From the NCBI GenBank assembly GCA_937911235.1, contig CALDPN010000086.1:1-59638 (forward strand): a DNA stretch of 59,638 nt, in the 5' to 3' direction. Each line of letters opens with the position of its first letter. Position 1 is the first letter of the stretch. This DNA is from an uncultured Bacteroidales bacterium. Its GTDB lineage: Bacteria > Bacteroidota > Bacteroidia > Bacteroidales > Paludibacteraceae. Under the pieces are notes generated by a model. The model did no database searches, was not told where the DNA came from, and saw only the letters and a list, made by a program, of their open reading frames with translations. Shown piece after piece: positions 748 to 18,256 of the stretch. The position numbers and the translations under genes are program-made.

Positions 748-1616
748 AGAAGTTTATACTTGTGTGTTTTATTGTATTAATATGTACTTGTACCTATTCA
801 CAAGTACAACCTAAAATTATGGTTATACCATATACATCAGAAGGTCAAGACATTAGAAATGTTTTGGAAAGGGATGAAACAAAAAGAATTATTCTTACAA
901 AAATAAAAGAAGCTTTTGATAATCGTGGTTTTAGTACTGTTGATTTTGTTGCTCGTTTAAAGTCAGCAGAGACGAGTAGCGTGATGATGATGGATAACCA
1001 AGATGATATAAAAGCTGAGATAATTAACATGTCTGGAGCTGACATATATGTGGAAGCTGAAATGATATGTTTACAGACTATTGTTTCAGGTCAAACTAAT
1101 CCAGAAACCAGAGTTAAGATTATATTAACAGCGTATGATGCTGCGACTGGTACTTCTCTATCGAATAAGATAGGTGAAAGTGGTACATTTTATACTAAGG
1201 ATGTTGCTAAACTGGCGATGAAAGCTATAGAGTCGTGTGCAAATAGTTTCTTAAGTGTAATGCAAAGTAAATTTTCTGATATAGTAGAGAACGGACGTTC
1301 TATTATACTTTATATTGGTTTTGATGAGTCTTCAACATTTACAATGGAAACTGAGGTTGGTTCAGACGGAATGTTATTGCAAGACGAAATAGAACTATGG
1401 GTGGAGAGTCATGCTTATAATGGATATTATCATATACTAGGTGCGACATCTCTAACGATGATATTTGATGAAATACGGATCCCATTATATGATGATGAGG
1501 GTAAAACTTATACATCGAGTAGATTTGGTTTAGAACTTTTAAAATTCTTTAGAAGTAATAAAATTAAAGTAACAAGGGATACTAAAGGTAATACATTATA
1601 TTTTACAATTAAATAA
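744..1616 (+). CDS. secreted hypothetical protein (possible LpoB/CsgG-like small alpha/beta module, unverified)
   Basis: Signal peptide MKKFILVCFIVLICTCTYSQ. PKIMVIPY...ADIYVEAE pattern. Translationally coupled to its neighbours. Confidence 0.5.
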   Translation: MKKFILVCFIVLICTCTYSQVQPKIMVIPYTSEGQDIRNVLERDETKRIILTKIKEAFDNRGFSTVDFVARLKSAETSSVMMMDNQDDIKAEIINMSGADIYVEAEMICLQTIVSGQTNPETRVKIILTAYDAATGTSLSNKIGESGTFYTKDVAKLAMKAIESCANSFLSVMQSKFSDIVENGRSIILYIGFDESSTFTMETEVGSDGMLLQDEIELWVESHAYNGYYHILGATSLTMIFDEIRIPLYDDEGKTYTSSRFGLELLKFFRSNKIKVTRDTKGNTLYFTIK

Positions 1617-1617
1617 G

Positions 1618-2685: not shown

Positions 2686-2691
2686 TATATT

Positions 2692-4407
2692 ATGAAAAAG
2701 ATTTTAACTAGTTTATTAATGTACATCGTCTGTTGTAGTTTGCTTACAGCTCAAACAACAGATGAGAATGGTGCGAAAAACTATACTGCAAATGTAGCAG
2801 TATTTGTGAACGAAACTATGTATGAGATTGAAAATGGTAGCATACATAGGGCAGAAATAGAGGGAAGAGAACGTCTTAAAGATGCCCTAACATTGTATAT
2901 GTCTCAGTATTTTATGCAGAATGGTTTTCTTATAGTTAATTCTGATCCTGCTATAAACCAAAAAATTAATTCTATAGTCCAAGAAAATAAATTAGAAGAG
3001 TATATTGATGGTATGTCTATTCAAGCTAAGAATGTAGGAGCTCAATTCCTAGCTCTTTTAGATTATACATTATATATGGAGAAAAATACAGATATAACAG
3101 TAGATTTCGCATTTAGGTTTATTAATGTCTATACAGGAGTTTCTACACATAGACACGTAACGCGCACTGATGTATGTTATACTGCAAATGATGTTAATAA
3201 ATTATCAGTTGATGCATTTAAAGAGTTTACAATCGAATTTGACGATTTCTTTAAACATCAATTTATACCTTCTTTCGTGGTATCAGAAGTAAATGGAAAG
3301 AAGACAAAATTATTTGCTACACGTGCGATGCAATTGACAAATGATAATGTTGATTACTATAAATGGTACAATGAGGTACATAAATTTAATGGTAAGGAAA
3401 TAAAATTCTGTTGTTTAGACTACCTTACTACATCGTCAACTCCTTTAAGTAAAGCAAAAGTTGATATGAATACACAGGCTATAATGCTTAATACAAAGAA
3501 GGCGATTTCAGAAAATCCTCAATCATTAACAGCTACTGCTGGTGTTAAATGGTTTATAGTTGGAGAATCGCATTCTCCTGTGATTTATACTTATTTGGAA
3601 TTACCTTATACCGAAAATAGCAAAGAAGCTTTTGCAAGAAAGATGGTAAATAATGCAGTTTTTCAGGCAATATCTACTCATCCAAACCAAAATTTGATAG
3701 CCGAAAGTGAGATGAATCCAGAAATAAAAGCTGAGAGGGAAAGACAAAAATCAGAAGATTTTATGAATACAGAAAATAATAATTATCAGAATCTGATTGA
3801 TAAGTTGGGCTCAGGTGCAATGGGGGCACAATATTTGATTTCTATAGAAGACTTTAAATTAGATTCAAATGATATTAAGAAGGTGTCTTTTACACTTAAA
3901 TGTTATGGAACAGAAGAAAATATATTACATAAGGCACATAATGTGTCGTGTCATTTATCTAATATTAATGAAGTAATGGATTACTATATAAATCAGTATC
4001 TATTAACATTAGTAAGTGTTTCATCTTTTGATAATAAGTCTATATCTCTAGTGACAACAATGTGGTTGAAGGCAAATGTCGGTGACATTTTTGTGTTGAA
4101 TGGGATAATGGAAATTACTGACCCATTAACAGGTAAAACAGTTTATAAAAGGACTCCAATCGCTGAATATAAATATATAGAATGGAAAGGTCAGAAACAT
4201 GTCCTTGAGTTAAAGGCTGTGTTGAATAAAGAAATGTATAAGAATATGGCAGAATTGTGCGAGAGAGAAAGAAATGGTAAAGGCAATTTTACTTTGTCAA
4301 AACATGTAAATAAACCAGATAAAATGGATAGAGACAATTCTATATTTGCTAAAAAAGAAAAGGCAAATAATGTTTTAGATGCATTTAGTGGAGGTTTTGG
4401 CTTCTAG
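2692..4407 (+). CDS. secreted hypothetical protein (571 aa)
   Basis: Signal peptide MKKILTSLLMYIVCCSLLTAQ. Last gene of a tightly packed four-gene unit, followed by a strong hairpin. Confidence 0.5.
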   Translation: MKKILTSLLMYIVCCSLLTAQTTDENGAKNYTANVAVFVNETMYEIENGSIHRAEIEGRERLKDALTLYMSQYFMQNGFLIVNSDPAINQKINSIVQENKLEEYIDGMSIQAKNVGAQFLALLDYTLYMEKNTDITVDFAFRFINVYTGVSTHRHVTRTDVCYTANDVNKLSVDAFKEFTIEFDDFFKHQFIPSFVVSEVNGKKTKLFATRAMQLTNDNVDYYKWYNEVHKFNGKEIKFCCLDYLTTSSTPLSKAKVDMNTQAIMLNTKKAISENPQSLTATAGVKWFIVGESHSPVIYTYLELPYTENSKEAFARKMVNNAVFQAISTHPNQNLIAESEMNPEIKAERERQKSEDFMNTENNNYQNLIDKLGSGAMGAQYLISIEDFKLDSNDIKKVSFTLKCYGTEENILHKAHNVSCHLSNINEVMDYYINQYLLTLVSVSSFDNKSISLVTTMWLKANVGDIFVLNGIMEITDPLTGKTVYKRTPIAEYKYIEWKGQKHVLELKAVLNKEMYKNMAELCERERNGKGNFTLSKHVNKPDKMDRDNSIFAKKEKANNVLDAFSGGFGF

Positions 4408-4670: not shown

Positions 4671-6119
4671 TTAGCTTAAGCCAAACAAGTCATCCATTGT
4701 GATTTCTTTTTGAACTAGTCCACTATATTTACCATATTTGATACCATATGTGCTAATTATGGTTAGGTGTATGGCTTGTTTTGCAGAGAGTGTATCTTTG
4801 AGAGTTTCAATGCGATGTCTAAGTTTTGAGTCTTCTTCTTTGTCAATATTGTAGATGTCGCTTGCAAATTTCATTTCACAAAGATTTACAATATTATCTT
4901 TTCTAATAATTAGAAGGTCTATTTGTGCTCCTTCTCGGTTGTCATTGCCTTTTATGCTCCAAGCTGATATAGAGCAGTTGAGACCTTTTATTCCAAGAGC
5001 ATTTTTGATGTTATCAATATGTTGCCAACAAACTTCTTCGAATGCAATACCTCTCCAATACTTTAAAATGTCTGAAGTAATATTTTCAGTCATATAGTTT
5101 GTTTTGTTACTGTTTGCTTCTACATGCTTAAGCCAAAACAAACAGAAGTTGTCGATAAGTTTATATTTTACTACCTTTCCGTGCTCATTGTATGGAGTGT
5201 ATTTTTGTATGAAATCGCTTTCTATAAGTGATGTTAATGTATTTGTAAGTCCTCCTCCAAAAGGAATTCCAGTTTCTGCTGAGATTTCTTCTCTAGTGTA
5301 ACCTATATGTTTTGTAGAAAGTAGTTTGATTATTTTTTTGCAATCTTCTGGATTGCTGAATATTGCTTTAAATAGTCTATTGTATTCGTCTTTAAGTCGA
5401 GGATTCCTTCCAAAAAGTATTTCATCAATATTTGCAGATAGGCTAAAACCCTTTTTGAAATATCTTAGATAATATGGAATTCCCCCAAATACCATATATG
5501 CTTGAATAATGTCGTAGCGTGACATTATAATATTTTCGTGTTCAAAATATTCTTCACATTCTTTTAAAGTAAAAGGTGATAATTTAATCTCGTCTGTAAG
5601 TCTGCCATATAGTCCACCTTTATTACGAGATAAGTTTCCTAATATCCATGAAGTCGCACTTCCGCATACAATAAGCATAATATTATCCCTGCCGCTACAC
5701 CAACCATTCCAAAAACTTTCAAATGCAGGTAAAAATCCAGAGCGTGGGGTATCCATCCAAGGAAGTTCATCTAAAAAGATTACTTGTTTAGAGCCATCGT
5801 CAAATCTTATCAGTAGTTGTTTTAGTTGAAAAAAAGCTTCCATCCAAGTTTTGGGTTTGTCGTAGCCTTCTAAACCATGACTCAAAAGTGTATAGTAGAA
5901 ACTTTCTAATTGTGTTCTCATAAGATTCTTCTCACTTTCTTGATCTACAGGTGAAACTCCTGTGTGTTGAAAGGTGAAACGATTCTTAAAAACCTGATTG
6001 ATTAGAAAGGTTTTTCCAACGCGTCTTCTGCCATATACTGCAACAAATTCTGAACGGTCACTGTGATAGAGTTTTTCTAGCTCTTCTATCTCTTTTTTTC
6101 TGCCTATTATTACACTCAT
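4671..6119 (-). CDS. AAA+ ATPase of the archaeal-ATPase/DUF234 type
   Basis: Walker A VYGRRRVGKT and Walker B VIFLDELPWM. Size (~480 aa) and the C-terminal region are typical of ATPase+DUF234 proteins. Confidence 0.75.
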   Translation of the reverse strand: MSVIIGRKKEIEELEKLYHSDRSEFVAVYGRRRVGKTFLINQVFKNRFTFQHTGVSPVDQESEKNLMRTQLESFYYTLLSHGLEGYDKPKTWMEAFFQLKQLLIRFDDGSKQVIFLDELPWMDTPRSGFLPAFESFWNGWCSGRDNIMLIVCGSATSWILGNLSRNKGGLYGRLTDEIKLSPFTLKECEEYFEHENIIMSRYDIIQAYMVFGGIPYYLRYFKKGFSLSANIDEILFGRNPRLKDEYNRLFKAIFSNPEDCKKIIKLLSTKHIGYTREEISAETGIPFGGGLTNTLTSLIESDFIQKYTPYNEHGKVVKYKLIDNFCLFWLKHVEANSNKTNYMTENITSDILKYWRGIAFEEVCWQHIDNIKNALGIKGLNCSISAWSIKGNDNREGAQIDLLIIRKDNIVNLCEMKFASDIYNIDKEEDSKLRHRIETLKDTLSAKQAIHLTIISTYGIKYGKYSGLVQKEITMDDLFGLS

Positions 6120-6236: not shown

Positions 6237-6932
6237 TTATTCTGCCATCATATCCATACTGAATACTTGGTCTACGCCTTCGGCTGCTTGTTTTTCTTCG
6301 GTTGCTTTGCTTTCTTCTTGCTCTCCTGTTTGGAATGCTTGATATGCTTCTTCCACTTCTTTTTCTTTGTCTTCTTTTAGCTTTTTAACGGTGCCCATGT
6401 GCCAATCATAGATTTCTTGTAGTTTGTCTTTGGCAAGTTGCATGTTTTCTTCTGAGGCACCATTCATTTTTAATGCCACTTTACTACTACCATAAGAGAA
6501 AATAGCTTCAAGTTTTGTGTTGGTAATGTCGAATTGAGCCTTAATATATTCCATACACACATCGTGACGCTCTTTGTTCATTTTGGGCATGGTGTAATAT
6601 ATTACTATTTCATCTTCGCCAGTTATTTCATTTTTCTCTGTTTTTTCTTCTATTTCAAATTCTGGGTGTTCTAGTTTAATTGCTTTTGTGATAGGAAGGA
6701 CATATTCTTTGTCTTTAGCAGTAATGGCAAATTGTTTGTCATTTGGAATTGCCACAGATGCCACTTCTTCTAGGTTTAGTTCTTTACCTTCTATTTTAAT
6801 GGTGGCAGAAAGGAGTGCCATTGGATCTGCGGTGATACATAAATTTGACAAATGAAAATAAAACAGCATAGCGTGGCCGTTCATTTTTTGTTTGGTTTCG
6901 TCAAATAGTTCGTTAATAGTTTTGTTATTCAT
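6237..6932 (-). CDS. hypothetical protein with ribosome-recycling-factor-like layout and acidic tail
   Basis: By-eye alignment to Frr/RRF. [52 protein letters not shown] matches [69 protein letters not shown] matches LPPLTEERRKDLTKIVR. Lies 15 nt downstream of the DUF4280 gene on the same strand. Confidence 0.4.
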   Translation of the reverse strand: [231 protein letters not shown]

Positions 6933-6947
6933 AACTTGATGTTTTAA

Positions 6948-7337
6948 TTATTTACCTGTTGTGTTTGCTACGTGCCCCGGATTTGTAATTGAGATATTAC
7001 CACCGTAGGCACACATTGTTTTACAATTGTCGAGTAGTGCTGGCATGTTTGATACCAATTCTTTGCCTCCGGGAGCCCATGGAGACACAATCACTGGGAT
7101 GCAAGGCATAGGTGTTAACACTCCCATCGCTGCAGATGTGGCAGATGCTACCGTAGGATTTGCCATAGATTGGCACATGCCAAATGGCATTATGTTCATC
7201 ATTGGTGCAAAGTCCATTATATTAGCCTTGGGTTTGTTTTGAATCATTGGTCTCAATGGCACGGTAACCATAAGTGTGGATGGTGCCATTCCGAAACTGC
7301 ATTTTAGCATTGCTCCCATGCATACATACTTAGCCAT
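6948..7337 (-). CDS. DUF4280 family PAAR-like protein
   Basis: Hallmarks GAMLKCSFGMAPSTLMV, FGMCQS, PCIPV..SPW, ALLDNCKTMCAYGGNISITNPGH. Size 129 aa. Confidence 0.8.
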   Translation of the reverse strand: MAKYVCMGAMLKCSFGMAPSTLMVTVPLRPMIQNKPKANIMDFAPMMNIMPFGMCQSMANPTVASATSAAMGVLTPMPCIPVIVSPWAPGGKELVSNMPALLDNCKTMCAYGGNISITNPGHVANTTGK

Positions 7338-7630: not shown

Positions 7631-8851
7631 GTGCTAAAAACAAATGGCATGGTAAAAAGATATGAAATAGAAACGGTAACGTTACAAGAGTGGGGAACCG
7701 ATATTTACCCTAAACTTTCTTGGTTTAAACAAAGCAAGGTTGCTTCTGCTCATGTTATGGTTGTGGGTTGTGGTGCACTAGGCAACGAGGTAATAAAAAA
7801 CTTGGCGCTTTTTGGTGTGGGCAATATTGTTTTGGTAGACTTCGATGAAGTTGAATACTCAAATCTTACTCGTTCTATTCTTTTTTGTAGTGATGATGCA
7901 AAAATGCATCGTTACAAGGTGGAAGCTGCTGCGGAGAGTGTAAAAAGAATCAATCCTAATATTAATGTGACCACGATAGTGGGCGATATAAGTAATAGTG
8001 TAGGACTAGGACTTATTCGTAAAATGAATGTGATAGTGGGCTGTCTAGATAATAGATGGGCTCGTTATACACTAAATCGCTTGTGTATGCGTGCAGGAGC
8101 TCCTTGGGTAGATGGAGGAATTAACGCTCTTGAGGGAGTGGCAAAGGTGTTTATCCCTGGCAAAAATTGTTATGCTTGCACACTTGAGCCTTCTGCTCTT
8201 GCAGAATTGAAGCGCAGTACTTCTTGCGCTGTGGCAATTAAAAGAAATCAAGAAAGTGGCAGAGTGCCTACTACTCCAGTGGTGGCATCTATTATAGGTG
8301 CAGTTCAGGCACAAGAGGCTATGAAACTGATTCATAAAGAAGAACTCCAAGGTGGAGAACTTACATCGCTTTGTGGCAAAATGTTTTGCTACGATGGAGC
8401 TTCTATGACAGTGAGGTTGGTCTCTCACGAGGCTTGGGACGAAGATTGTCCAGTTCACGAACATTGGTCTCCTGTGATAGAATCTCCTCTTACCAATCTT
8501 AATACAGTAGAAGAAGTTTTAGCATATATAAAAGATAAATTTTCAACAGACTCTGCCGAAATAGTTTTAAGAAATCAGGCATTTGTGGATTTTATTGAAG
8601 ATAGAATTACTGGTGAAAAATACAATATAATGCTACCGGAGGCTGAGGTGTCTAGTTTTATAGAAAATGATGAGGTGCTGCGCATCAAACCAATGGGGCA
8701 GTTCTATCAACATACCATACGTGGTATCAATGAAGATTTTAAATACAAAAACCTAACACTAAAACAACTTGGCATTCCAGAGCAAGATGTGTTACACGTT
8801 AGGGATGAGAGAGAATTTTACGTTGAGTTAGGGTCAACTCCTAACTTCTAA
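7631..8851 (+). CDS. ThiF/MoeB/E1-like adenylating enzyme (ubiquitin-activating-like)
   Basis: Rossmann motif VMVVGCGALGNEVIKNLALFGVGNIVLVDFDEVEYSNLTRSILF (GxGxxG...D.D.V..SNL.R). CYAC Zn-type motif followed by STSCAVA. About 130 aa of extra C-terminal domain. Start may be the ATG at 7649. Confidence 0.85.
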   Translation: MLKTNGMVKRYEIETVTLQEWGTDIYPKLSWFKQSKVASAHVMVVGCGALGNEVIKNLALFGVGNIVLVDFDEVEYSNLTRSILFCSDDAKMHRYKVEAAAESVKRINPNINVTTIVGDISNSVGLGLIRKMNVIVGCLDNRWARYTLNRLCMRAGAPWVDGGINALEGVAKVFIPGKNCYACTLEPSALAELKRSTSCAVAIKRNQESGRVPTTPVVASIIGAVQAQEAMKLIHKEELQGGELTSLCGKMFCYDGASMTVRLVSHEAWDEDCPVHEHWSPVIESPLTNLNTVEEVLAYIKDKFSTDSAEIVLRNQAFVDFIEDRITGEKYNIMLPEAEVSSFIENDEVLRIKPMGQFYQHTIRGINEDFKYKNLTLKQLGIPEQDVLHVRDEREFYVELGSTPNF

Positions 8852-8883
8852 CTCCTAACTCCTAACTCCTAACTCCTAACTTT
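8836..8883 (+). repeat. tandem heptamer array (AACTCCT) about 6.9 units
   Basis: AACTCCT AACTTCT AACTCCT x4 AACTTT. The E1 stop codon TAA (8849-8851) lies inside the array, and the next ATG (8884) follows it directly. Confidence 0.9.
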
Positions 8884-9666
8884 ATGAAAAACACAAACAT
8901 ATCAGAATTGAGGGCAGAGGTGCTACTAAATCACTTATATCCAGAGCAAACAGATAACTGGATAGTAAGGGATAAGGGTACTTTTTATCGTAATTATAGT
9001 AGCGATATTTTGCAATTAGATGAAAAACTATCTCAAGTTTCTCTTTCACGTGATGGTTTGTTGCGTTTGCTTCCTCAGGGATTGATAAGTGCAGAAGATG
9101 ACCTTAGAGGCAAAGATTTTCCAACAAAATATGAGGAACTTACTCGTCGCAAAAACAACTTAGAAGAACTTTTTGTTCCATTCGATTCTTGGCGTTTTAG
9201 AGATGCAGTAAGAGATGAAGAGGATTTAGCAGACCTACTTGCAAATAAGCTAAATATCTTACTTAAAACATATTACGGAGTAGATATAGAGTCGGAGCAA
9301 AATCCAGATGTGAGAGAACTGATGAAAATGTTGCCTTTAGCAAGTAGTATTCGTGGCAATTATCACAAGATAGGTGATATACTAATGGTCATTTTAAAAC
9401 ATAGAGTTACTACTCACATTTCTTGCTACAATTGGAGCGACAAATTTATTGATACACAACCAATGGTAAGTTACAAGGTTTGGATTTCTAAACTTACAAA
9501 AGAAGAATATATCAGCCTTGAAAAAAATATAGAAGACTTGGTAAGTTTTATTGTTGAATGGTTTATCCCTTTTGATACACGTTGTGTAATAGAACTTAAA
9601 ACCGAAGAAAAAGCTTCGTTAAACCACACAATGCTTCTAAACTATAATACAAAGTTGAGTTTATAA
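8884..9666 (+). CDS. hypothetical protein; possible TssG-like baseplate component (weak)
   Basis: Sits in the operon between the E1 and TssK-like genes. Only faint resemblance (IRGNYHKIGDILMVILKHRV...W) to the central region of TssG. Confidence 0.3.
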   Translation: MKNTNISELRAEVLLNHLYPEQTDNWIVRDKGTFYRNYSSDILQLDEKLSQVSLSRDGLLRLLPQGLISAEDDLRGKDFPTKYEELTRRKNNLEELFVPFDSWRFRDAVRDEEDLADLLANKLNILLKTYYGVDIESEQNPDVRELMKMLPLASSIRGNYHKIGDILMVILKHRVTTHISCYNWSDKFIDTQPMVSYKVWISKLTKEEYISLEKNIEDLVSFIVEWFIPFDTRCVIELKTEEKASLNHTMLLNYNTKLSL

Positions 9667-9688
9667 ATTTTCTAAATACTTAAATAAG

Positions 9689-10831
9689 ATGAATGTAAAT
9701 GCAAAAATAGATTGGCATGCCGGAATGGAGCTTACTGCTCAAACATTTATCGAATTAGACAAATGCTTAGAAAGAAATAGGCAAATAACAAACACAGTAG
9801 CATGTGGAAATCATTTTGGAATCCTTCCTACTACTACATTTTCTTGCAAAGGTGTGTTTGTAAAAAAGACATTGGAGATAACTCCACTTTCATTTATGGC
9901 ACTTATGCCATCTGGTAACCTACTTCATGTAGATGAAAATGTGGTGGTTGATATTCCTATTTTGTATGGAAAGGAATATTATTTAGGTTGCAAGCAAGGT
10001 GATAAAACCCGTAGTTTCGACAAAGAACAAGTGCCTTTTGTATCTCCAGTGGCAGAATGTGGTATTTACACTTTCGAAGATTTGGCGTCTGCTCAGGTGT
10101 TCCCTTTAATGAAATTTAAAGTGAACGAGGGTGTTTTCTCTGTAGATAAAGATTATATACCTCCATTTTTAACCTTAGCTTTAGATACACGTTTTCAAGA
10201 CTATATAAACACTTTTGCTTCAAAAATTTCTGTTTTAGCAAAACATAAAAATCTAGAATCATCAGAGGCGAAACGTTGCTTTCTACGTTATGCAAATGTA
10301 CTTAAAAACTACAGCACTACACATAGAGTTCAACATTTTATAGAACTACTACAAGAAATAGCAGCTGCTGTAGAATTTTATATAGTTCAAGTATTTACAG
10401 AGCATGTAATTGAACAAAAGAGTTATTCTCCATACGATATAGTATCTTACCTAACATGGCTAGATGGATATTTACATGGTGCTGCCACAATTCTAGATGG
10501 AGTTGTGCTAGAAGACAAATCAATAGACTTCGATGCTCTAAAACTACAGGTTAAAGAAGAAATTTACGAAAAAGTTTATCCAGAACTTAAAGAGGCGTTG
10601 TACAATGAATTGCACGAAGAACTTAAGAAAGAAATTTGGGATGAGCTATATTCTTCACTTTCAGATTACATCAATGGTAATTTCAGAAAAGAAATCTTTG
10701 AATTGTTAGAAGGAAGGCTTTCAGAAGAACTATACGAAAAATTGTATAAGACCTTGTACGATGGATTATACAATGCTCTATACGTGCCTGCTCCGGTAGA
10801 GGAAGAAGAAGAGTTTTTACCTTTAATTTAA
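9689..10831 (+). CDS. TssK-like baseplate protein with atypical helical-repeat C-terminus
   Basis: N-terminus IDWHAGMELTAQTFIELD resembles the TssK signature W.EGM.L.PQHFQQ.D. The last ~100 aa are EL/LY-periodic repeats. Confidence 0.45.
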   Translation: MNVNAKIDWHAGMELTAQTFIELDKCLERNRQITNTVACGNHFGILPTTTFSCKGVFVKKTLEITPLSFMALMPSGNLLHVDENVVVDIPILYGKEYYLGCKQGDKTRSFDKEQVPFVSPVAECGIYTFEDLASAQVFPLMKFKVNEGVFSVDKDYIPPFLTLALDTRFQDYINTFASKISVLAKHKNLESSEAKRCFLRYANVLKNYSTTHRVQHFIELLQEIAAAVEFYIVQVFTEHVIEQKSYSPYDIVSYLTWLDGYLHGAATILDGVVLEDKSIDFDALKLQVKEEIYEKVYPELKEALYNELHEELKKEIWDELYSSLSDYINGNFRKEIFELLEGRLSEELYEKLYKTLYDGLYNALYVPAPVEEEEEFLPLI

Positions 10832-10836
10832 AGCTT

Positions 10837-11274
10837 ATGATTACTCGTATTCCACTACAAATAAACTCAGGTGTTTTAGCCACTTATACAGATGTAAAAG
10901 AATCTATTGATGCACATGTAGAGTTGCTACTCACCACACCAGTAGGTAGTTGTGTCTCTGATCCAAACTTTGGTTTTATCTTAAATAATCTACGTTTCGA
11001 GATATTTAACGAAAACGAAGGTGTGGTGTTGAATGCAGACGAAGACCCTTCTGAACTATACGAGAAAAAGGTGTCTGGTTCTTCTAGAAATGTAAACACT
11101 TTTGCTATAGAACTTAAACAACTCATTGAACATTACGAACCAAGACTAGAAGATGTGCTTGTTACAATGTCATATGTGAGAGAGCATCGCAAAATTTACA
11201 TAACTATTAAAGGTGTTATCATAGAAACACAAACAAATTATCAGTATCAAACTTCTATTAGAATTTGGCAATAG
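10837..11274 (+). CDS. GPW/gp25-family baseplate wedge protein (TssE-like)
   Basis: SIDAHVELLLTTPVGSCVSDPNFGF matches the gp25 core I...L.T..G.R...P.FG. Size 145 aa. Confidence 0.7.
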   Translation: MITRIPLQINSGVLATYTDVKESIDAHVELLLTTPVGSCVSDPNFGFILNNLRFEIFNENEGVVLNADEDPSELYEKKVSGSSRNVNTFAIELKQLIEHYEPRLEDVLVTMSYVREHRKIYITIKGVIIETQTNYQYQTSIRIWQ

Positions 11275-11277
11275 ATT

Positions 11278-12972
11278 ATGAGAAAAAAAATATTTGCTAC
11301 AGGAGAGATGGCTAAAGAGCTTCAAAAAGAAGCTATGGCTATTTGGCGTATGGGAAGTAATGAAGAGAACTTTGAGGGGATGGAAAATGACCCAGTGGTC
11401 TCATTACTTATGACAGCCTTGGCGTATCAAGAATATACAGCTGATAATGAACTTTCTCGACTAAAAAATGAGGTACTAGAAGACTTCTCTCGTATGCTTA
11501 TCCCATACGAATTATGTCATGCGAAACCTGCAAGTGTGTTGGTGCGAACAAACACAGAAGAGCAAGTAAATAAGGTGTCGCTTCATTCTGGAATGTCATT
11601 TACGCTTAGTGAAAATAAATTCAATTTTATGCCACTTCTAGATACCACAGTTTACAATGCAAAACTAGACTCAGTGGTGCGACTAGATGCTCGTAGATGG
11701 AAGGTGAGCATAAACTTCAAAGAAGAAATTTCTTCTCTAGAGGGTTTCTCATTCCTTGTTGATAATCACAACTTCAAAGACCTAAACATTAGCCTCGGAG
11801 GTAAACGTATTTCTCTTATAAAACCTTGGCACTATGCAAATTTGCCACTTTCTAAGTGTTTCTCTATAGATTCAATGCTATACAATGAAACCTTGGCATT
11901 TGACGCTAGCACCACATGGTTCGATTTATTTGCTCAGCAAAACAAACGCATGTTTGTGGTAGAAAAATATGCAACAGACGATATTTTTACTTGCCCTGTA
12001 GACAAGATAGATTTAGTTTTTGAATTTGTGGGAATAACAGATGATTTTGTCTTTGATAAATCTCAACTAATCATAAACACAGTTCTACTTGTAAATACAA
12101 GTTTAAAAAATGCTACACTGTCTGTAAACAATCCTATTGTGCGTATTGCCGACGAAGAAGGAAATGCCTCAGAAAAACTTTTGCATTTAATGCGTCCTTC
12201 TTCTGAACAAATGTATAAAAACATTTCTTTCACTCTTCGTCGTTCTGCAATAGAGCGTTTCAATGTGGATAGTTTATTAAGACTTCTACACTGCCTAATA
12301 GACAAATATTCTACAGACTACTACGCATTTATGCAGATAGACAGACTAAAAAATGGTTTAGAAGTAAATCGTTTATATCAATGGCTTGTAAATCTAGCAA
12401 AATACCTAGAAGATTCACCAATGTCTGTGTCTTCTGGTGTGTATTTGTTACTTAAAAAAGGCAAAGATAGTTTGCTTGAAGACGAAAGTCTCACACTACA
12501 ATACCTTATCACTCAAGGTGCTATGATAAACCCATATTTAAGTACACGTGCGCAGTTCAATGTGCCAGTAGGCATCTCAATGCAAAAAACTAGCGTGGTG
12601 GCAGAGCCTGTTTTAGGCTTGGATGAAGTAGTTGGAGTGGATGTTCAAAACTCAATGTCTAGATATTATATGGTCACAAACAACAGACTTGTTACACCTG
12701 CCGATATCAAGATTTTCTGTTACAACGAGCTCCTAAGAAGATACAATATAGATTCTAGTATTATTCGCAATATAGTGGTGACAAATGCAATTCATTCAGA
12801 AAGAGGTCATTGTGGTTTTGAAACCAAAGTAGAGATACTTATTATAGATGATGTATTTGTCAAACGTAGTTTGGCAGGAAAAATAAACGAAGTAGAACTT
12901 ATTCTACAAAAAATGATAGAGGTTCGTAGTTCTTTCGCCTATCCAGTTCAAGTGAATATTCGTATTGTTTAA
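11278..12972 (+). CDS. TssF-like baseplate protein
   Basis: NDPVVSLLMTALAYQEYTADNELSRLKNEVLEDFSRMLIPYELCHAKPASVLV parallels the TssF N-terminal block DP.VERLLEGFAFL.AR....LDD.FP.....LL..L.P..L.P.PS. Size 564 aa. Sits immediately after the gp25-like gene, as in tssE-tssF. Confidence 0.55.
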   Translation: MRKKIFATGEMAKELQKEAMAIWRMGSNEENFEGMENDPVVSLLMTALAYQEYTADNELSRLKNEVLEDFSRMLIPYELCHAKPASVLVRTNTEEQVNKVSLHSGMSFTLSENKFNFMPLLDTTVYNAKLDSVVRLDARRWKVSINFKEEISSLEGFSFLVDNHNFKDLNISLGGKRISLIKPWHYANLPLSKCFSIDSMLYNETLAFDASTTWFDLFAQQNKRMFVVEKYATDDIFTCPVDKIDLVFEFVGITDDFVFDKSQLIINTVLLVNTSLKNATLSVNNPIVRIADEEGNASEKLLHLMRPSSEQMYKNISFTLRRSAIERFNVDSLLRLLHCLIDKYSTDYYAFMQIDRLKNGLEVNRLYQWLVNLAKYLEDSPMSVSSGVYLLLKKGKDSLLEDESLTLQYLITQGAMINPYLSTRAQFNVPVGISMQKTSVVAEPVLGLDEVVGVDVQNSMSRYYMVTNNRLVTPADIKIFCYNELLRRYNIDSSIIRNIVVTNAIHSERGHCGFETKVEILIIDDVFVKRSLAGKINEVELILQKMIEVRSSFAYPVQVNIRIV

Positions 12973-12988
12973 TAAAAAAAATAAGATT

Positions 12989-13306
12989 ATGGAAGAATTT
13001 TTCTTAAACATAGTTTATAAAAACAAGAAGGTACGCTTTCGCATTATAAATCCAGAAGCACCTCTTAGTACGTTAATGAGCAACCTACGCCATGCCATAG
13101 GTAAAGATGGAAGACTTATTTTCGATTTCCCATCTGTAGATAATACAGGTGCTCCACTAGATTATTTCTTTGGAAAAGAAGACGCTGAGATAAATGAAAT
13201 TAGAGTTTTACGTCCAAGAGTAGGTAAAGTGGATCAAACTTTAGCCGACTATAGCATCAAAAATGGCGATACAGTATATTTAATTCCAGACCCATTCCCA
13301 GGATAG
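12989..13306 (+). CDS. small ubiquitin-like (beta-grasp) protein candidate ending in Gly-stop
   Basis: About 105 aa from the ATG at 12989 (the track start at 12965 is TTG). Alternating beta-like segments KVRFRII...LADYSIKNGDTVYLIPDPFPG, with the C-terminal residue Gly directly before TAG. The stop is 2 nt before the E2 start. Confidence 0.5.
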   Translation: MEEFFLNIVYKNKKVRFRIINPEAPLSTLMSNLRHAIGKDGRLIFDFPSVDNTGAPLDYFFGKEDAEINEIRVLRPRVGKVDQTLADYSIKNGDTVYLIPDPFPG

Positions 13307-13308
13307 TT

Positions 13309-13869
13309 ATGAAAGAGTTAACTGGACGAAATAGACGATTGCAACACGAATGGAAAACCTTAGAAAAAAGGCTAGCCTCAAGGTCTGATATAGACTTTTC
13401 CATTTCAAAACTAAATGCACAAGGTATGCCAATAGGCTATGAAGTAACATATCATGTGAAGTCTATTTGTGGAGTTACAAACATAGAAAACTTAGACAAG
13501 CCAGGCATTGATAATGAACCAATATTTGCAGAAGAATTTAAAATGCAAATAGAAATACCAGAAGATTATCCTTGTATAGATGCAATGCCAGAGTTTTGCT
13601 TCAAAACAAAAGATTCAGAGGGCAATTCAATACCTCACCCTTGGCACCCAAATATTAGATATTTTGGAGAAATGGCAGGTAGAGTTTGTTTAAATGCACC
13701 AGATAGTTATATGGATTTGGTATGGTATGTAGAGCGAGTGGCTCTATATCTAAGATACGAACTATATCATGCCAAACAAGAGCCTCCTTATCCAGAAGAT
13801 ATTACTGTGGCACGTTGGGTACTTCGCCAGGGAGAACCAATGAGGTGGATATTTTTTAATCAAAAATAA
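13309..13869 (+). CDS. UBC-fold ubiquitin-conjugating (E2)-like protein
   Basis: EDYPCIDAMPEFCFKT...HPWHPNI (HPN at 13645-13653)...GRVCLNAP (Cys127 at 13687-13689). This reproduces the E2 pattern YP..PP...F...i.HPNi...G.iCLdil. Confidence 0.7.
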   Translation: MKELTGRNRRLQHEWKTLEKRLASRSDIDFSISKLNAQGMPIGYEVTYHVKSICGVTNIENLDKPGIDNEPIFAEEFKMQIEIPEDYPCIDAMPEFCFKTKDSEGNSIPHPWHPNIRYFGEMAGRVCLNAPDSYMDLVWYVERVALYLRYELYHAKQEPPYPEDITVARWVLRQGEPMRWIFFNQK

Positions 13870-13876
13870 TAAAGTG

Positions 13877-15055
13877 ATGAATAAAGCTGTTTGTAAATTA
13901 GTTTGTTCTTTGGTTGTTTTAACAACTGCATTTATGGCATCATGTGCTAGTAAAAAGGCCATTGAAATGCCTATAAAACCATACCAAGTAATAACAGTAT
14001 CAGAAGAAACTCCTTATACAGAAACAATTTCTACCAAAGAAGGGGCTAAAGATATGGATATGCTCCTTAAAATAGAGTATAGCGAGAACGATAATACATT
14101 AAATGTAAGTATTACTTCACAACATCATTTATTTGGTTTTAAAAACAATTCACTTTATAAAAATGTAATCAGAAACAAGAAAATTTCTCTAGTACGACTT
14201 CCATATAAAGTGGTATCAGAACCAGATATGACTTATAGATTGTCTAAAAATATCCGTAATAATATTTCTGGTTGTAACGATAAACATACATTTAAAGCCT
14301 GGATTTCTACTACAGGGTTGCATTCACAAATGTCAGACTATGAAATGGTTACAGAAATTCTAACCCAAAAGTTTGACATTGTAGGCGATACCACTATTAC
14401 AGTTACTTTAGGCGATATTATGATGATGGAGCGTTCGGTATCTAAGAAAAATCGTTACGACCTTACTTTCTATACCAACCTAAACAAATCATATGTGGTA
14501 AATATCAAGCGCAATCCGTGTTTAGGTAAGGAAGCAGAACTAGATTCTACCCAAACTTTGTTGGATGAAATTAAAGAAAACTATACATCACTAGCAAGTA
14601 AATACCCAAATGTTGAGAATCTTACACAAGAAACTCTTTTAGCTTTAGAAGAGGTGAGGGTGAAATTTGAAACTAAATACGAAAAGAAAGAAACTACAAA
14701 TGAATGCCCAGCCATAGCATCTATGCTAGAAAACTATAATACATACGTGGATTCTATAGCAAAACTAGCAGACGTGAAAGCTGAATTTGCTCATAAAAGA
14801 CCAAGACTTTCAATGCCGGCAGACCAACTATTAGCAGTGGCTCGTATGGTAGATACCAATGTGGCTTCATGGCTAGTGTCAAATGACGTGGTAGAAAAAG
14901 CCGATTTAGTTAAGCGAAACAGACACCTTATTGATGATATAAACAAGAAAATATCTAATAAAATGAGAATGGATACAGAGCAAACCAAAGCTTACGCTGT
15001 ATTCAAAAAAGCAGAAAGATACTTCAACGAAACTTGTCAAAACAAAAAGAAATGA
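13877..15055 (+). CDS. lipoprotein, unknown function
   Basis: Signal peptide with lipobox LTTAFMASC. ATG at 13877 (the track start at 13874 is GTG). 4-nt overlap with the next gene. Confidence 0.55.
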   Translation: MNKAVCKLVCSLVVLTTAFMASCASKKAIEMPIKPYQVITVSEETPYTETISTKEGAKDMDMLLKIEYSENDNTLNVSITSQHHLFGFKNNSLYKNVIRNKKISLVRLPYKVVSEPDMTYRLSKNIRNNISGCNDKHTFKAWISTTGLHSQMSDYEMVTEILTQKFDIVGDTTITVTLGDIMMMERSVSKKNRYDLTFYTNLNKSYVVNIKRNPCLGKEAELDSTQTLLDEIKENYTSLASKYPNVENLTQETLLALEEVRVKFETKYEKKETTNECPAIASMLENYNTYVDSIAKLADVKAEFAHKRPRLSMPADQLLAVARMVDTNVASWLVSNDVVEKADLVKRNRHLIDDINKKISNKMRMDTEQTKAYAVFKKAERYFNETCQNKKK

Positions 15056-15873
15056 GAAAGTTTTTTGTCTTAATATTATGCTTTGTTTGCTTTACGGCTA
15101 CTTGGGCGCAAGATACTCCTGCAGAAGCAAAAGTGGACCCATTTGCAGCACTAGAGGTGAGAGGTAGATTGTCTCTTTTTATAGAAGAAATAGAAACATT
15201 ACTTGCCAATGTGTCTTCTGCAAAACAAAAGCAACTTAAAAAAGCAGAAAAGTCGCTTAAAGCAGTAGAAAAGAAGTGGACTTTGTATAGCACTGCTCAT
15301 GGAGATGTTATTGCTTCAGAAGAAAGCCTAATGGAAGTAGTTGTGGCATACGAAGAGCGCAAACAATTATTGGCAGACTCTATAGCATCACAACTTCACA
15401 AACTCGACTCTTACGATAAGTTTGAGAGTGCAGAAGTTTTTATAGAATCTCAAATAGAACCTTATAACGAACTATATAACCAAGCAGTAGAATACTCTAT
15501 GCTAAAACAAACTGCATCACTACTAGAAAAACTTAAAACCAAAGAAGGACTTACTTTTAGTGATATTACAGCTCGTTACGAGGACTCTAAAACTATATCA
15601 GAAGAATATCCAGCCCTTAAAAAGAGAATGGAAGAATTAGAAGAGGAGTATATAGAAATTAAAGGACTTTCAGAAAAAATACAGGCTGCAGAATATAAAC
15701 CATTTCTAACTAGGATAAAAGATTACCTATATAGTTTTGCTGCAGTGGCAATGCTACTTATGTTTGCCAATATGGTACAAGCAAAAATACAAGCATCCCA
15801 ACAAATGCGTAAGAGCGCCAAAGAGTATCAAGAATTATTAAAGAAAAACGAAGAAGAAATACCTTCCATTTAA
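15052..15873 (+). CDS. exported coiled-coil protein with C-terminal membrane anchor
   Basis: ATGA overlap start gives MRKFFVLILCFVCFTATWAQ as signal peptide. Long helical E/K-rich body. Hydrophobic segment YLYSFAAVAMLLMFANMVQA near the C-terminus. Confidence 0.5.
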   Translation: MRKFFVLILCFVCFTATWAQDTPAEAKVDPFAALEVRGRLSLFIEEIETLLANVSSAKQKQLKKAEKSLKAVEKKWTLYSTAHGDVIASEESLMEVVVAYEERKQLLADSIASQLHKLDSYDKFESAEVFIESQIEPYNELYNQAVEYSMLKQTASLLEKLKTKEGLTFSDITARYEDSKTISEEYPALKKRMEELEEEYIEIKGLSEKIQAAEYKPFLTRIKDYLYSFAAVAMLLMFANMVQAKIQASQQMRKSAKEYQELLKKNEEEIPSI

Positions 15874-15880
15874 ATATATA

Positions 15881-18256
15881 ATGGCTATGAAAACTTGTAA
15901 ATTTTTATGTTTAGCATTTTTAATGCTAATAGCAGTAGGTTGTTCAGAAGGTAAATTAGATAACACTACCAGTGAAACTGAAAATCTTGAAATTTCTGAT
16001 ATTCAATTCGATGAGAATTATAAGGATTTCTCAATAGGGGTGCATTTCAAAGATGCCTTTATGCCAAAGAAAAGACTTCACATTGGCAAGATAAAACTAA
16101 ATGTTACAGAATATGATTCTGATATGAATAAGATTACAGAATCTGCTCAGCCAATTTTCAGAGGTGCTAAAAACCTTCATTCAGAAAAGATAAAAGATTT
16201 AGGCATCAAAGGTCTAGTGCTAGTGGACTTGTCTTTAGACGAATTGCAAATAGAAAAAGAGAAAGGGGCAGTAGAAAGTTTGAGAGAGTTTGTTTTTGAA
16301 AACCAACTATATGTAGCCTTTATGCAAGATGGCAAGGTGAGCCCAACTTATCCTGCTACAGATTATGTTCTAGACAATTACTTTATTCCAAATCAAGCTC
16401 CTAAAAAATTGTTTGGTAGTATAGTTGCTAAGATGGATGAGATGAAAAGTGAAGATTCTGAATTTTTCTCACAAACAGCAACAGAAAATAAAGTACTTAT
16501 TGTGTTTTCCGACGGACATATCTACAATGGTGATAAACCTATAGATCCTAAACACTTTGAGTATCAAGAAATATTACTAAACCAAACAAAGCAAGACGAT
16601 AAACTACAATTTTGTTATGTAAACTTCAACGAAGAAAAAGACGATGAGTTTGCAGTGGAGAATGATGTAGAAAACATATTCACATACATTTGCAAAGGCT
16701 TGGGTGGAGCGTATATTCCAGACGTGGATATGAAACAAATAGCTACAGAGGTAATGCGTGGTAGAGATAGTGAAAAAGTGGATTTTAGACTAAAACTTAC
16801 AAATCCAGATCATAAAATTTACCGTGGCGACGAAAGAATACTTAAGGTTAATTGTATGTATGATGGAGAACTACTTTTCACAGGTTCTAAATCATATTCT
16901 TTAGGTAGTGTGTATAAACCTGTTATAGTCAATGGTTCTGGTTTATATAGCGTATTAATACAAGCCGCAGTATTTACATTAATATTAGTATTATCCATCT
17001 ACGTGGTATTTCAACTAATAGAACCTTATGTGAAATATCGTATCTTCAAGTATAAATACGTAACCAAATATACAGGGCCAAATATGAGTTGGAGAGGCAT
17101 CCAAGTGCCAGATTCATGCTACTATTGTAAAACACCATTCGAGATAGGCGACGAGATAGTAGTGAAATGTGAGCACGTTATGGATATGTCTTGTTGGAAA
17201 GAAAATTTATACAGATGCCCTGAATATGGCAGAAGATGCAATTTAGGAAAGCACTATTACAACGACAAAAACATTTTCGATAAGAAAAATGCACCTTATT
17301 ATATGAAGTGGCTTTTAGCTGGTACATTGGCAGGGTTCGTAGCATGGTTCTTCTTTATATTAGGCACCTTCCACTCAGATCTGTCATTTATAAATGGAAT
17401 ATATGATAAGGTTTCACAATTTGACCCTTTAAGAGATATGGTGTTTGGTTTACACAATAATGTAACATCAGGCATGTTTGCTGCACCATACTTTGGTTTC
17501 TTTATGTGTTTCTGTTTAACCCTTGCCTTAAGTTTACTTTCTAGTCATGGTAAATGGTTGTACAAACGCACAGTTGTGGTACTTATAAAATCTTTAGTCG
17601 CAGGTATATGTGGTTATCTTACATATCTATTAGTAGTGTTGGCACTAATCGCATTCAAGCTAAAAGGTTATTATTATATGATAGACTGGATACCATGGGC
17701 ATTAAATGGTTATATAGTGGCATATGCAGTAGCATTTAAAACAGATATTAAACTGAAAAAAGCATTAATGGGTGCAACTATTTCTATGGGATTCTCAATA
17801 GCCTCAATGTATCTTTGGAATTATTCAACACATTCACACATAGATACTAGAGATTTATTATTGGTAAGTTGTTTAATATATGGCATCGGCTTAGCAGCCA
17901 GTCTTGCTATAAATTTTCCACAATCTGAACGCTATTTTATAAAGGTGGAAGGACCAATTAAAACTATGGAGTTGGCACTTTATAAGTGGATGAACGCACA
18001 AGTTATAAACCGCTGCGTTACCATAGGTAAGTCTGTGGATTGTAATCTGCAAATGTCTTGGGATATAAATAGTGCCATTGCCCCAAAACAAGCAGAACTA
18101 AAAATGATAGGAGGTAATATCTATCTTATTCCACTTGAAAACGGCGTCACTTTCAAAGGTAAACCAGCTATCATAGACAAACGCATTCACCTATATCACG
18201 GCGACAAGTTTGTGATAGGACAAACTAAGTTCACATATGTAGAACACGATGTGTAA
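15881..18256 (+). CDS. multidomain membrane protein: lipoprotein signal, vWA-like domain, TM, RING-like Zn finger, polytopic TM block, FHA-like C-terminus
   Basis: Lipobox LIAVGC. vWA-like strands GLVLVDLSLD and VLIVFSDG. C413-x2-C-x13-C-x-H-x5-C-x7-C-x6-C453 (17117-17239). About six further hydrophobic helices. C-terminal TIGKSVDCNLQM...AELKMIGGNIYLIPLENGVTFKGKP...LYHGDKFVIGQTKFTY has the FHA topology pattern with divergent pThr-binding residues. Confidence 0.6.
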   Translation: MAMKTCKFLCLAFLMLIAVGCSEGKLDNTTSETENLEISDIQFDENYKDFSIGVHFKDAFMPKKRLHIGKIKLNVTEYDSDMNKITESAQPIFRGAKNLHSEKIKDLGIKGLVLVDLSLDELQIEKEKGAVESLREFVFENQLYVAFMQDGKVSPTYPATDYVLDNYFIPNQAPKKLFGSIVAKMDEMKSEDSEFFSQTATENKVLIVFSDGHIYNGDKPIDPKHFEYQEILLNQTKQDDKLQFCYVNFNEEKDDEFAVENDVENIFTYICKGLGGAYIPDVDMKQIATEVMRGRDSEKVDFRLKLTNPDHKIYRGDERILKVNCMYDGELLFTGSKSYSLGSVYKPVIVNGSGLYSVLIQAAVFTLILVLSIYVVFQLIEPYVKYRIFKYKYVTKYTGPNMSWRGIQVPDSCYYCKTPFEIGDEIVVKCEHVMDMSCWKENLYRCPEYGRRCNLGKHYYNDKNIFDKKNAPYYMKWLLAGTLAGFVAWFFFILGTFHSDLSFINGIYDKVSQFDPLRDMVFGLHNNVTSGMFAAPYFGFFMCFCLTLALSLLSSHGKWLYKRTVVVLIKSLVAGICGYLTYLLVVLALIAFKLKGYYYMIDWIPWALNGYIVAYAVAFKTDIKLKKALMGATISMGFSIASMYLWNYSTHSHIDTRDLLLVSCLIYGIGLAASLAINFPQSERYFIKVEGPIKTMELALYKWMNAQVINRCVTIGKSVDCNLQMSWDINSAIAPKQAELKMIGGNIYLIPLENGVTFKGKPAIIDKRIHLYHGDKFVIGQTKFTYVEHDV

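Follow-up and report, generated by a model that had tools for sequence, protein, structure and literature searches.

What would a bacterium do with a small protein that ends in a bare glycine and is encoded directly ahead of a protein resembling a eukaryotic ubiquitin-conjugating enzyme (E2)? The question is raised by contig CALDPN010000086.1 of an uncultured Bacteroidales bacterium of the family Paludibacteraceae (assembly GCA_937911235.1), the whole 59,638-nucleotide (nt) stretch of which is referred to here as the window. The original prediction, made from the letters of the window, had proposed a ubiquitin-like protein (Ubl) translationally coupled to an E2. We consider it likely, from sequences and structural models, that the two proteins are the modifier and the conjugating enzyme of a functional Ubl cascade that comprises an activating enzyme (E1), the E2, and a RING-type ligase (E3), and that this cascade is tied to a variant of the Bacteroidales type VI secretion system (T6SS). 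The gene content, the modeled folds, the catalytic motifs, an invariant terminal glycine, strict synteny, and the embedding in T6SS clusters are direct observations. The four proteins in question are encoded as follows:

12989 to 13306, forward strand: Ubl gene; 105 amino acids (aa), beta-grasp, C-terminal ...PDPFPG and then the stop codon.
13309 to 13869, forward strand: E2-like gene, UBC fold; 186 aa, with HPN at 13645-13653 and Cys127 at 13687-13689.
7631 to 8851, forward strand: E1-like gene; 406-aa adenylating enzyme whose ThiF domain covers residues 33-275 (Pfam ThiF, 1.4e-53).
15881 to 18256, forward strand: polytopic membrane RING-H2/FHA protein, candidate E3; 791 aa.

The small protein and its terminal glycine

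The Ubl open reading frame (ORF) begins with ATG at 12989 and ends CCA GGA TAG, with GGA (Gly105) at 13301-13303 and TAG at 13304-13306; the ...PDPFPG terminus of the original prediction agrees with the sequence base for base. An alternative TTG start at 12965 overlaps the 3' end of the preceding gene, and 12989 is the likely start because the Ubl homologues are 105 aa long. The beta-grasp fold that had been expected for this protein was recovered as well. An AlphaFold2 model built on a 46-sequence alignment (pLDDT, 88.7) shows two strands, a helix, and further strands, which is the beta-grasp order. Foldseek matched this model to ubiquitin variants, SUMO, and Ubl domains of the EccD/YukD type (EccD5) from type VII secretion systems (T7SS), and also to FERM F1 lobes; the probability was 1.00 for the ubiquitin, SUMO, and EccD matches, and the EccD Ubl domain 7b7j was among the closest (E, 6.6e-4). 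Against viral structures, the model resembles the ubiquitins of giant viruses. Identity to ubiquitin over the structural alignments is just 11 to 19%, and the Pfam Prok_Ub and YukD models do not match the window Ubl.

Relatives of the Ubl number 553 at an E value of ≤1e-3 in a large protein collection. Glycine is the last residue in every one of the 120 listed clusters whose terminal residues were read, and 117 of them end in PDPFPG. The same holds at the level of genomes: among 80 species-representative loci, recovered with the E2 profile and compared throughout this study, Pro-Gly directly precedes the stop codon in 80 of 80. The stop codons are 39 TAA, 28 TGA, and 13 TAG, and this use of all three points to selection on the end of the protein, not on the DNA. 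In an hhalign alignment, Ubl residues 82-100 fall on residues 53-71 of ubiquitin and leave a five-residue tail in both proteins (DPFPG versus RLRGG), which places Gly105 in register with Gly76 of ubiquitin. When the family profile was compared with 1.8 billion representative proteins, about 40 further family clusters were found and, more weakly, eukaryotic polyubiquitins; the strand TL(A/S)DYNI..(d/s)TL.LV is the element that the Ubl family and the polyubiquitins have in common.

Distant full-length relatives mostly end in ..PIAG, ..PIPG, or ..VIAG. The expectation that homologues of the small protein would end in glycine is thus borne out, near and far. A minority of the distant relatives carry short extensions beyond the glycine (GAR, GANLM, or GYTTVSRNC) or are tandem di-Ubls. 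The further claim, that a glycine without trailing residues makes processing unnecessary, stands for the window Ubl and for all 80 loci; it does not extend to the distant homologues with tails, which suggest that some branches of the family use processing. Judged from sequence, the glycine is the conserved functional end of the family, and the wider family would sometimes need processing. To call a single terminal glycine unusual was an overstatement, as other modifiers end in a similar way, with Val-Gly in UFM1 and Phe-Gly in processed ATG8. We also note, among the distant relatives P0303, P0276, P0286, and P0329, a fusion in which three or more Ubl repeats are joined to an E2-like domain (HPQ...C), and tandem di-Ubls with ..PIAG followed by a C-terminal extension.

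The Ubl is the best-conserved gene product of the cluster, with a mean identity of 77% (this and the other mean identities below were computed among loci whose E2s are <70% identical). Such conservation would be expected of a hub that has to fit E1, E2, E3, and targets. It also bears on the idea that the protein is a secreted Ubl toxin or T6SS cargo, comparable to BfUbb of Bacteroides fragilis. A eukaryote-like ubiquitin is secreted by Bacteroides and acts as an antibacterial toxin (PMC5705921, PMC11467351), and the Ubl gene does sit in a secretion cluster. However, the translated Ubl has no signal peptide and shares little sequence with ubiquitin, it is always paired with an E1 and an E2, and effectors are typically variable, whereas this is the most conserved protein of its cluster. 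A role as toxin or cargo is very unlikely.

The E2-like protein

The E2 ATG (13309) follows the Ubl stop codon after a spacer of 2 nt (tt), as first read from the window. In other species, the distance from the Ubl to the most upstream in-frame E2 ATG is mostly -4 to +85 nt. Since the spacing thus differs between species, we do not uphold translational coupling of the two genes as a conserved property; what remains here is adjacency only.

The protein contains the string Y87-P88...P94-x-F96-x-F98, the motif His113-Pro114-Asn115 (HPN), and Cys127 (TGT) 12 residues past Asn115, and all coordinates given for these features in the original prediction agree with ours. It had also anticipated a UBC fold, and both AlphaFold2 (pLDDT, 83.7) and a Foldseek search with the resulting model return one. 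The search matched 23 PDB chains at an E value of ≤1e-3, all of them eukaryotic-type E2s; they include UBE2G2, UBE2K, UBE2C, Cdc34, Ubc9, UbcH5, and Ubc13, with the top matches (UBE2G2, UBE2K, UBE2C, and Ubc9) at about 1e-5. Alignment to UBE2K with HMMER and to UbcH5B with hhalign placed HPN on HPN and Cys127 on the catalytic cysteine (Cys85 of UbcH5B). Relative to UBE2K and UbcH5B, the family has an insertion of 3 to 4 residues between the asparagine and the cysteine (4 relative to UbcH5B).

In the large protein collection, 510 E2 relatives were found at an E value of ≤1e-3, and invariance was scored in 53 homologues with identities down to 55%. Both HPWHPNIR and G-x-V-C127 are unchanged in 53 of 53, so the conservation of Cys127 that had been proposed as a test of its role is complete in this set. 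A few of the E2 homologues have a precomputed match to PF00179, and none of the Pfam Prok-E2_* models matches the window E2.

The E1-like protein

Searched against PDB sequences, the profile of the adenylating enzyme scores better against UBA7 (6e-34), UBA6, UBA1, SAE2, and UBA3 than against MoeB, ThiF, and MccB. Its residues C180xxC183 and C273xxH276 are invariant and form a putative zinc site. Cys199, 16 residues past the CxxC, is likewise invariant; by position only, and from the established architecture of E1s, we infer that it is the crossover-loop catalytic cysteine found in ThiF and E1 enzymes. About 130 residues follow the ThiF domain. The gene is syntenic in 74 of the 80 loci, and the others are truncated where a contig stops.

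A small beta-grasp protein with a terminal glycine and an adenylating enzyme are also what a sulfur carrier system would have, in which a ThiS/MoaD-like protein is thiocarboxylated by a MoeB/ThiF-type enzyme for the synthesis of cofactors or thionucleosides. The E1 does match ThiF, MoeB, and SAMP-E1 models. However, the NCBIfam ThiF and MoeB models score it at 146 and 133 bits, far under their cut-offs of 275 and 266, and canonical E1s score higher. The Ubl ends in Pro-Gly, not Gly-Gly; the neighbors are Tss genes, with no rhodanese, ThiG/H, or MoaE gene among them; and an HPN/Cys E2 and a RING protein are always encoded together with the pair. We regard sulfur transfer as extremely unlikely.

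The membrane RING-H2/FHA protein

The candidate E3 of the proposed E1-E2-RING cascade is a membrane protein. From hydropathy, the 791-aa protein is predicted to have a lipoprotein-type signal, a periplasmic N-terminal domain of ~340 aa, a first transmembrane segment at ~358-376, a cytoplasmic RING, at least four more transmembrane segments, and an FHA-like C terminus. The RING-H2 domain spans residues 413-453 (17117-17239) and the FHA-like domain lies at about 17978-18253. Domain scans covered 33 orthologues: zf-RING_2 was found in 33, Prok-RING_1 (PF14446) in 31, and FHA in 18 (best FHA match, 2.6e-8). The ligand pattern is C413-x2-C416-x13-C430-x-H432-x2-H435-x2-C438-x7-C446-x6-C453, in which the cysteines and H432 are invariant, and the profile aligns with the RING-H2 proteins RNF24 and RNF126. 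At residue 435 (17183-17185), the window has Asp; at least 90% of the orthologues have His, the fifth zinc ligand.

Among the structural genes of the cluster, this is the sole polytopic membrane protein, and only a downstream SpoIIE-type sensor also shows several predicted transmembrane segments. Apart from its matches, the membrane proteins of the cluster have no Pfam or NCBIfam family matches. In one Prevotella locus (L030), the gene is fused to that of the 279-aa-type protein that otherwise precedes it. At 15075-18221 of the same locus, downstream of the RING/FHA gene, are genes for a Cache-SpoIIE(PP2C)-HATPase_c_2 sensor, a STAS protein, and an AraC regulator. This SpoIIE/STAS partner-switching module of Prevotella might supply a phospho-signal for the FHA domain.

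A ten-gene unit conserved across Bacteroidales

The four genes belong to a codirectional block at 7631-18256 that encodes, in order, the E1, a 260-aa protein, TssK-like, TssE/gp25, and TssF-like proteins, the Ubl, the E2, a lipoprotein, a 279-aa protein, and the RING-H2/FHA protein. The remaining members of the block, followed by two genes beside it, are as follows:

8884 to 9666, forward strand: 260-aa soluble protein adjoining the TssK-like gene; no transmembrane segment; present in 76 of 80 loci.
9689 to 10831, forward strand: TssK-like baseplate protein, 380 aa; NCBIfam TIGR03353 at an E value of 1.3e-9, under the cut-off; weak Pfam T6SS_VasE match; 77 of 80 loci.
10837 to 11274, forward strand: TssE/gp25-like baseplate wedge protein, 145 aa; Pfam GPW_gp25 at 4e-13, above the gathering score; NCBIfam TssE at 2.3e-10.
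11278 to 12972, forward strand: divergent TssF-like baseplate protein, 564 aa; 10 of 33 orthologues match Pfam T6SS_TssF, best E value 2.1e-6; 79 of 80 loci.
13877 to 15055, forward strand: lipoprotein of ~392 aa with signal ...FMASC and no assigned family; one N-terminal hydrophobic segment; 79 of 80 loci, 23 to 40% identity.
15052 to 15873, forward strand: secreted, transmembrane-anchored protein of ~273-279 aa; signal peptide and one C-terminal transmembrane segment.
6948 to 7337, reverse strand: DUF4280 (PAAR-like spike-tip) gene; Pfam DUF4280 at 2.1e-33; divergent from the E1 gene; 66 of 80 loci.
6237 to 6932, reverse strand: 231-aa RRF-domain protein; Pfam RRF at 6.5e-14, 52.5 bits; beside the cluster in 57 of 80 loci.

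The ten genes occur in identical order and orientation in 80 of 80 loci, with gaps only at contig ends, and relatives are encoded in 174 scanned species genomes. The unit is carried by Bacteroidales of the following groups: Candidatus Enterocola, Paludibacteraceae, Prevotella/Xylanibacter, Bacteroides, Mediterranea, Caecibacteroides, Alistipes, Millionella, Parabacteroides, and Rikenellaceae. The window proteins are 98% identical to those of an Enterocola metagenome-assembled genome (MAG; locus L010). Four loci that bear the same Bacteroidales cluster and synteny are labeled Sphaerochaetaceae (L049), Subdoligranulum (L053), Oscillospiraceae (L071), and Firmicutes CAG:103 (L075); they are probably mis-binned MAG contigs and not cases of horizontal transfer.

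After the Ubl (77%), mean identity falls to 59% for the E2, 53% for the E1, 52% for TssE, 46% for TssK, 43% for the TssF-like protein, and 33 to 37% for the three envelope proteins. The HPN motif and cysteine of the E2, the nucleotide-binding and cysteine residues of the E1, and the RING ligands are unchanged over a sequence divergence of 30 to 60%.

The 260-aa protein has no Pfam, NCBIfam, or PDB-sequence profile match; judged by position only, it may be the equivalent of TssG. The window's own 564-aa protein does not match Pfam T6SS_TssF, and its profile found nothing among PDB sequences; the matches of 10 of its 33 homologues uphold the earlier naming of the gene before the Ubl as TssF-like. 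The position of the Ubl after that gene had been regarded as odd. It is instead the key to the finding, as the Ubl, E2, E1, and RING genes are core genes of a T6SS cluster.

Embedding in type VI secretion clusters

In nine Prevotella-type genome loci, genes for TssC and Hcp lie directly upstream of the Ubl unit. The upstream part of L030 reads TssC, Hcp, Hcp, DUF4280, PEGA, E1, 260-aa protein, TssK, TssE, TssF, Ubl, E2, lipoprotein, and the fused 279-aa/RING/FHA protein, and downstream of the latter the Cache-SpoIIE(PP2C)-HATPase sensor, STAS, and AraC genes are followed by Hcp and VgrG. In the clusters of Prevotella, the DUF4280 gene comes after Hcp or VgrG. A metagenome scan centered on TssC of L030 returned 80 rumen loci, with 20-kb loci among them, and all that are long enough read TssC-Hcp-(VgrG-595aa)-DUF4280-PEGA-(RRF-like)-E1-...-Ubl-E2. 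The genes farther upstream were scanned in a single locus, L090; there, TssC is preceded by a ClpV-type AAA+ protein and a small ORF of TssB size, beside housekeeping genes. A divergent version of the cluster (L081 to L083; Ubl 46%, E2 51%, E1 47%, and RING protein 30% identical) is likewise preceded by TssC, two Hcp genes, VgrG, and a DUF4280 effector gene, and a more distant contig (L084) encodes a Ubl ending in EVIAG and then an HPN/Cys E2.

Two further genes accompany the cluster in other loci. A 595-aa repeat-rich protein is encoded just downstream of VgrG (39-1826 in L011) in 50 of the 80 loci, and a 457-aa secreted PEGA-domain protein (2245-3618 in L011) in 60. Neither gene is present in the 59.6-kb window, which suggests that the Enterocola version is reduced or split. 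The T6SS genes in the window are those for TssE, the TssF-like, the TssK-like, and the PAAR-like proteins only.

We infer from these arrangements that the larger finding is one of integration: they suggest a bacterial Ubl conjugation system with a RING E3 that is built into a secretion machine. The baseplate proteins, however, are homologues of phage tail proteins, and it is conceivable that the cascade serves anti-phage defense in the manner of Bil systems, tagging phage tail or baseplate proteins with the Tss-like proteins as sensors or decoys. Bil systems conjugate their Ubl to the central tail fiber of phages (bioRxiv 10.1101/2023.09.04.556158), and a PDC-S27 candidate defense gene (E, 1e-191) adjoins the cluster in the window. 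Among the 80 loci, however, that gene occurs in just one and looks like a lineage-specific insertion. PADLOC models do not match the Ubl, the E2, or the RING protein and match the E1 with a generic adenylation domain only, and the cluster has no deubiquitinase (DUB), whereas Bil operons have one. The distribution, chromosomal and syntenic across about 170 species, is not patchy, and the cluster directly adjoins a full set of T6SS genes for sheath, tube, spike, PAAR, and ClpV. A defense role of the Bil kind appears improbable.

If the Ubl belongs to the secretion machine, it could still act without being conjugated, as a structural adaptor like YukD/EsaB of the T7SS or the EccD-like domain of TssN, with the E1 and E2 otherwise used or vestigial. 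EccD Ubl domains are among its best structural matches, the ubiquitin-like domain of TssN docks the baseplate in the canonical T6SSiii (PMC10781749), and conjugation of the Ubl is so far a prediction. Against a purely noncovalent role, the free terminal glycine is strictly invariant at the end of a tail of ubiquitin length, the catalytic residues of the E2 and E1 and the RING ligands are invariant over the divergence given above, and E1, E2, RING, and Ubl always co-occur. We consider a noncovalent role unlikely, if somewhat less so than a role in defense.

Points that weigh against a T6SS-linked cascade

Several results count against the conclusion that the Ubl and E2 act in an E1-E2-RING cascade tied to a T6SS. 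Domain assignments fall short of formal thresholds for three of the four proteins. The Ubl is under the Pfam gathering scores for ubiquitin (PF00240; 18.5 versus 23.8 bits) and Rad60-SLD (PF11976; 12.8 versus 25.4 bits), and the window E2 is under that for UQ_con (22.6 versus 27 bits; E, 8.7e-5). The RING matches are also under the Pfam gathering threshold, with best E values of 1e-4 to 5e-5. The Foldseek TM-scores are modest (about 0.5 to 0.65) because of insertions. A ubiquitin-fold domain (UFD) was looked for in the C-terminal part of the E1 by hhalign against the Ubl profile, and nothing was found.

Other points concern the pathway and its setting. Pfam and NCBIfam scans detected no JAB or other DUB families in any cluster protein and thus no enzyme that would make the modification reversible; the original prediction had likewise seen no recognizable JAB/DUB gene in the operon, and this absence fits a modifier that is made in its mature form. 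TssB, TssC, Hcp, VgrG, and ClpV are all missing from the 59.6-kb window, so the tail genes of Enterocola are either elsewhere or absent, and in this lineage the link to the firing apparatus rests on other genera. An 862-aa ORF at 54855-57443 was considered as a ClpV and rejected, as it does not match Prevotella ClpV at an E value of 1e-3. Finally, the thioesters and conjugates, the part assigned to Cys199, ligase activity of the RING protein, the target, and the outcome are all predictions.

A possible mechanism

The cascade that we consider likely would run as follows. The Ubl would be made with its reactive Gly105 already exposed. The E1 would adenylate Gly105 and probably load the Ubl onto Cys199 as a thioester, from which it would be handed to Cys127 of the E2, with the HPN motif providing the oxyanion-hole asparagine. 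At the cytoplasmic face of the inner membrane, the polytopic RING-H2/FHA protein would recruit or activate the E2~Ubl, and a lysine in either a T6SS component or the RING protein itself would receive the Ubl. Tagging could then control how the TssE/F/K baseplate docks or assembles on the envelope complex, and the FHA domain may gate this step through phosphothreonine signaling. Broadly, the cascade probably controls the assembly of the baseplate or of the membrane complex.

A more specific model can be drawn by analogy to the canonical Bacteroidales system. In the T6SSiii, the membrane protein TssN, encoded between tssK and tssG, has an EccD-like domain of ubiquitin fold on which the baseplate docks via TssK (PMC10781749). 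The present Ubl resembles EccD-type domains, and no separate polytopic TssN-like gene was found in the cluster; for these reasons, we raise, as a tentative and rather doubtful idea, that the cluster is a fourth Bacteroidales T6SS architecture. In such an architecture, a free Ubl would be ligated onto a membrane protein or baseplate subunit and would make or remove the docking site of TssK under phosphothreonine control.

Relation to known systems and significance

By sequence and structure, the components of the cluster are nearer to their eukaryotic counterparts than to the characterized bacterial systems Cap2, Bil, and Bub (PMC11601596, PMC11601603). The likeness to eukaryotic cascades includes a beta-grasp Ubl with a free C-terminal glycine and a tail of equal length, an E2 with YP..P.F.F, HPN, and a cysteine, an E1 that scores best against UBA7, UBA6, and UBA1, and a RING-H2 pattern. 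The cluster departs from them in that the Ubl ends in Pro-Gly instead of Gly-Gly and needs no processing of a precursor, the E2 carries insertions (the 3 to 4 residues between the asparagine and the cysteine, and others), the E1 is a short single chain (406 aa), and the last cysteine pair of the RING is separated by six residues instead of two. The RING, moreover, resides in a polytopic FHA membrane protein, there is no DUB, and the genes lie in a T6SS cluster.

Part of this system may have been predicted computationally already. Burroughs, Iyer, and Aravind (Mol Biosyst) reportedly described, in 2011, HPN-type E2s, an E1 UFD, transmembrane prokaryotic RINGs, and possibly conjugated YukD-like Ubls, and the Prok-RING_1 family is said to have been defined from that work. 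The E2s, RINGs, and Ubls of this description agree with the cluster seen here. Compared with such predicted prokaryotic E1/E2/RING/Ubl systems, the Prok-RING_1 matches seen here (31 of 33) are below the gathering score, and the JAB peptidase is absent.

Bil systems (types I and II) resemble the cluster in having a separate E1, E2, and Ubl, in conjugation (predicted here), and in a tie to phage-tail-like structures. They differ in having a JAB DUB and no RING, in residing in defense islands, and in targeting the phage tail fiber, whereas the present cluster has a RING/FHA protein, no DUB, no PADLOC match, and a T6SS context. Bub (6E/DUF6527) and Cap2 of type II CBASS are also bacterial E1/E2 relatives that act on a terminal glycine (PMC11601596). 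However, the E1 and E2 of Bub are without catalytic cysteines and work with peptidases and a DUF6527 protein (PMC11601596), whereas Cys127 and Cys199 are conserved here and Pfam found no DUF6527 protein or peptidase among the operon proteins. Cap2 is an E1-E2 fusion that acts on a CD-NTase, whereas the E1 and E2 of the cluster are separate and have no CD-NTase beside them.

Among secretion systems, the T6SSiii (genetic architectures GA1 to GA3, with TssNQOPR) is alike in that relatives of the cluster have ClpV, TssB, TssC, Hcp, VgrG, PAAR-like, TssE, TssF, and TssK proteins and in that a beta-grasp element is tied to TssK, this element being the EccD-like domain of TssN in the T6SSiii (PMC10781749). 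The beta-grasp protein of the cluster differs in being free-standing and, to judge from its features, equipped for covalent attachment. Surveys of gut Bacteroidales recognize the three architectures, none described with an E1, E2, or Ubl (PMC10942478, PMC4714493). In the searchable literature, we found nothing that links an E1/E2/Ubl system to the T6SS.

YukD/EsaB and EccD of the T7SS are likewise small beta-grasp components of a secretion machine and are structurally close to the Ubl, which differs in its invariant glycine terminus and in the full cascade that accompanies it. To our knowledge, the YukD/EsaB and EccD domains act noncovalently and have not been reported with an E1 or E2.

The characterized bacterial Ubl conjugation systems Cap2, Bil, and Bub are anti-phage defenses without a RING E3, and here all four parts of the eukaryotic scheme are encoded together. 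Should the tentative idea of a fourth architecture hold, this would be the first case of a bacterial E1-E2-RING cascade that acts on an endogenous cellular target, and one of the nearest prokaryotic counterparts to eukaryotic ubiquitination. The carriers are gut and rumen Bacteroidales, several of them cultured (among them Xylanibacter ruminicola D31d, Prevotella sp. ne3005, Mediterranea massiliensis, Bacteroides mediterraneensis, and Caecibacteroides pullorum), and could offer a tractable model for E1-E2-RING cascades before eukaryotes. The findings also suggest a new layer of posttranslational control through which abundant bacteria of the gut and rumen would regulate T6SS firing, and a diversity of Bacteroidales T6SSs that exceeds the three recognized genetic architectures.

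Genes flanking the cluster in the window

Farther upstream on the reverse strand, at 4671-6119, a 482-aa ATPase matches the PADLOC candidate defense family PDC-S27 nearly end to end. Its single counterpart among the comparison loci (in L004) is 99% identical, and the gene looks like a lineage-specific insertion beside the cluster. At 295-4407 on the forward strand are four genes for signal-peptide or lipoprotein-type proteins, which are not kept beside the cluster in other genera; one of them is a DUF6175 protein (E, 2.7e-74).

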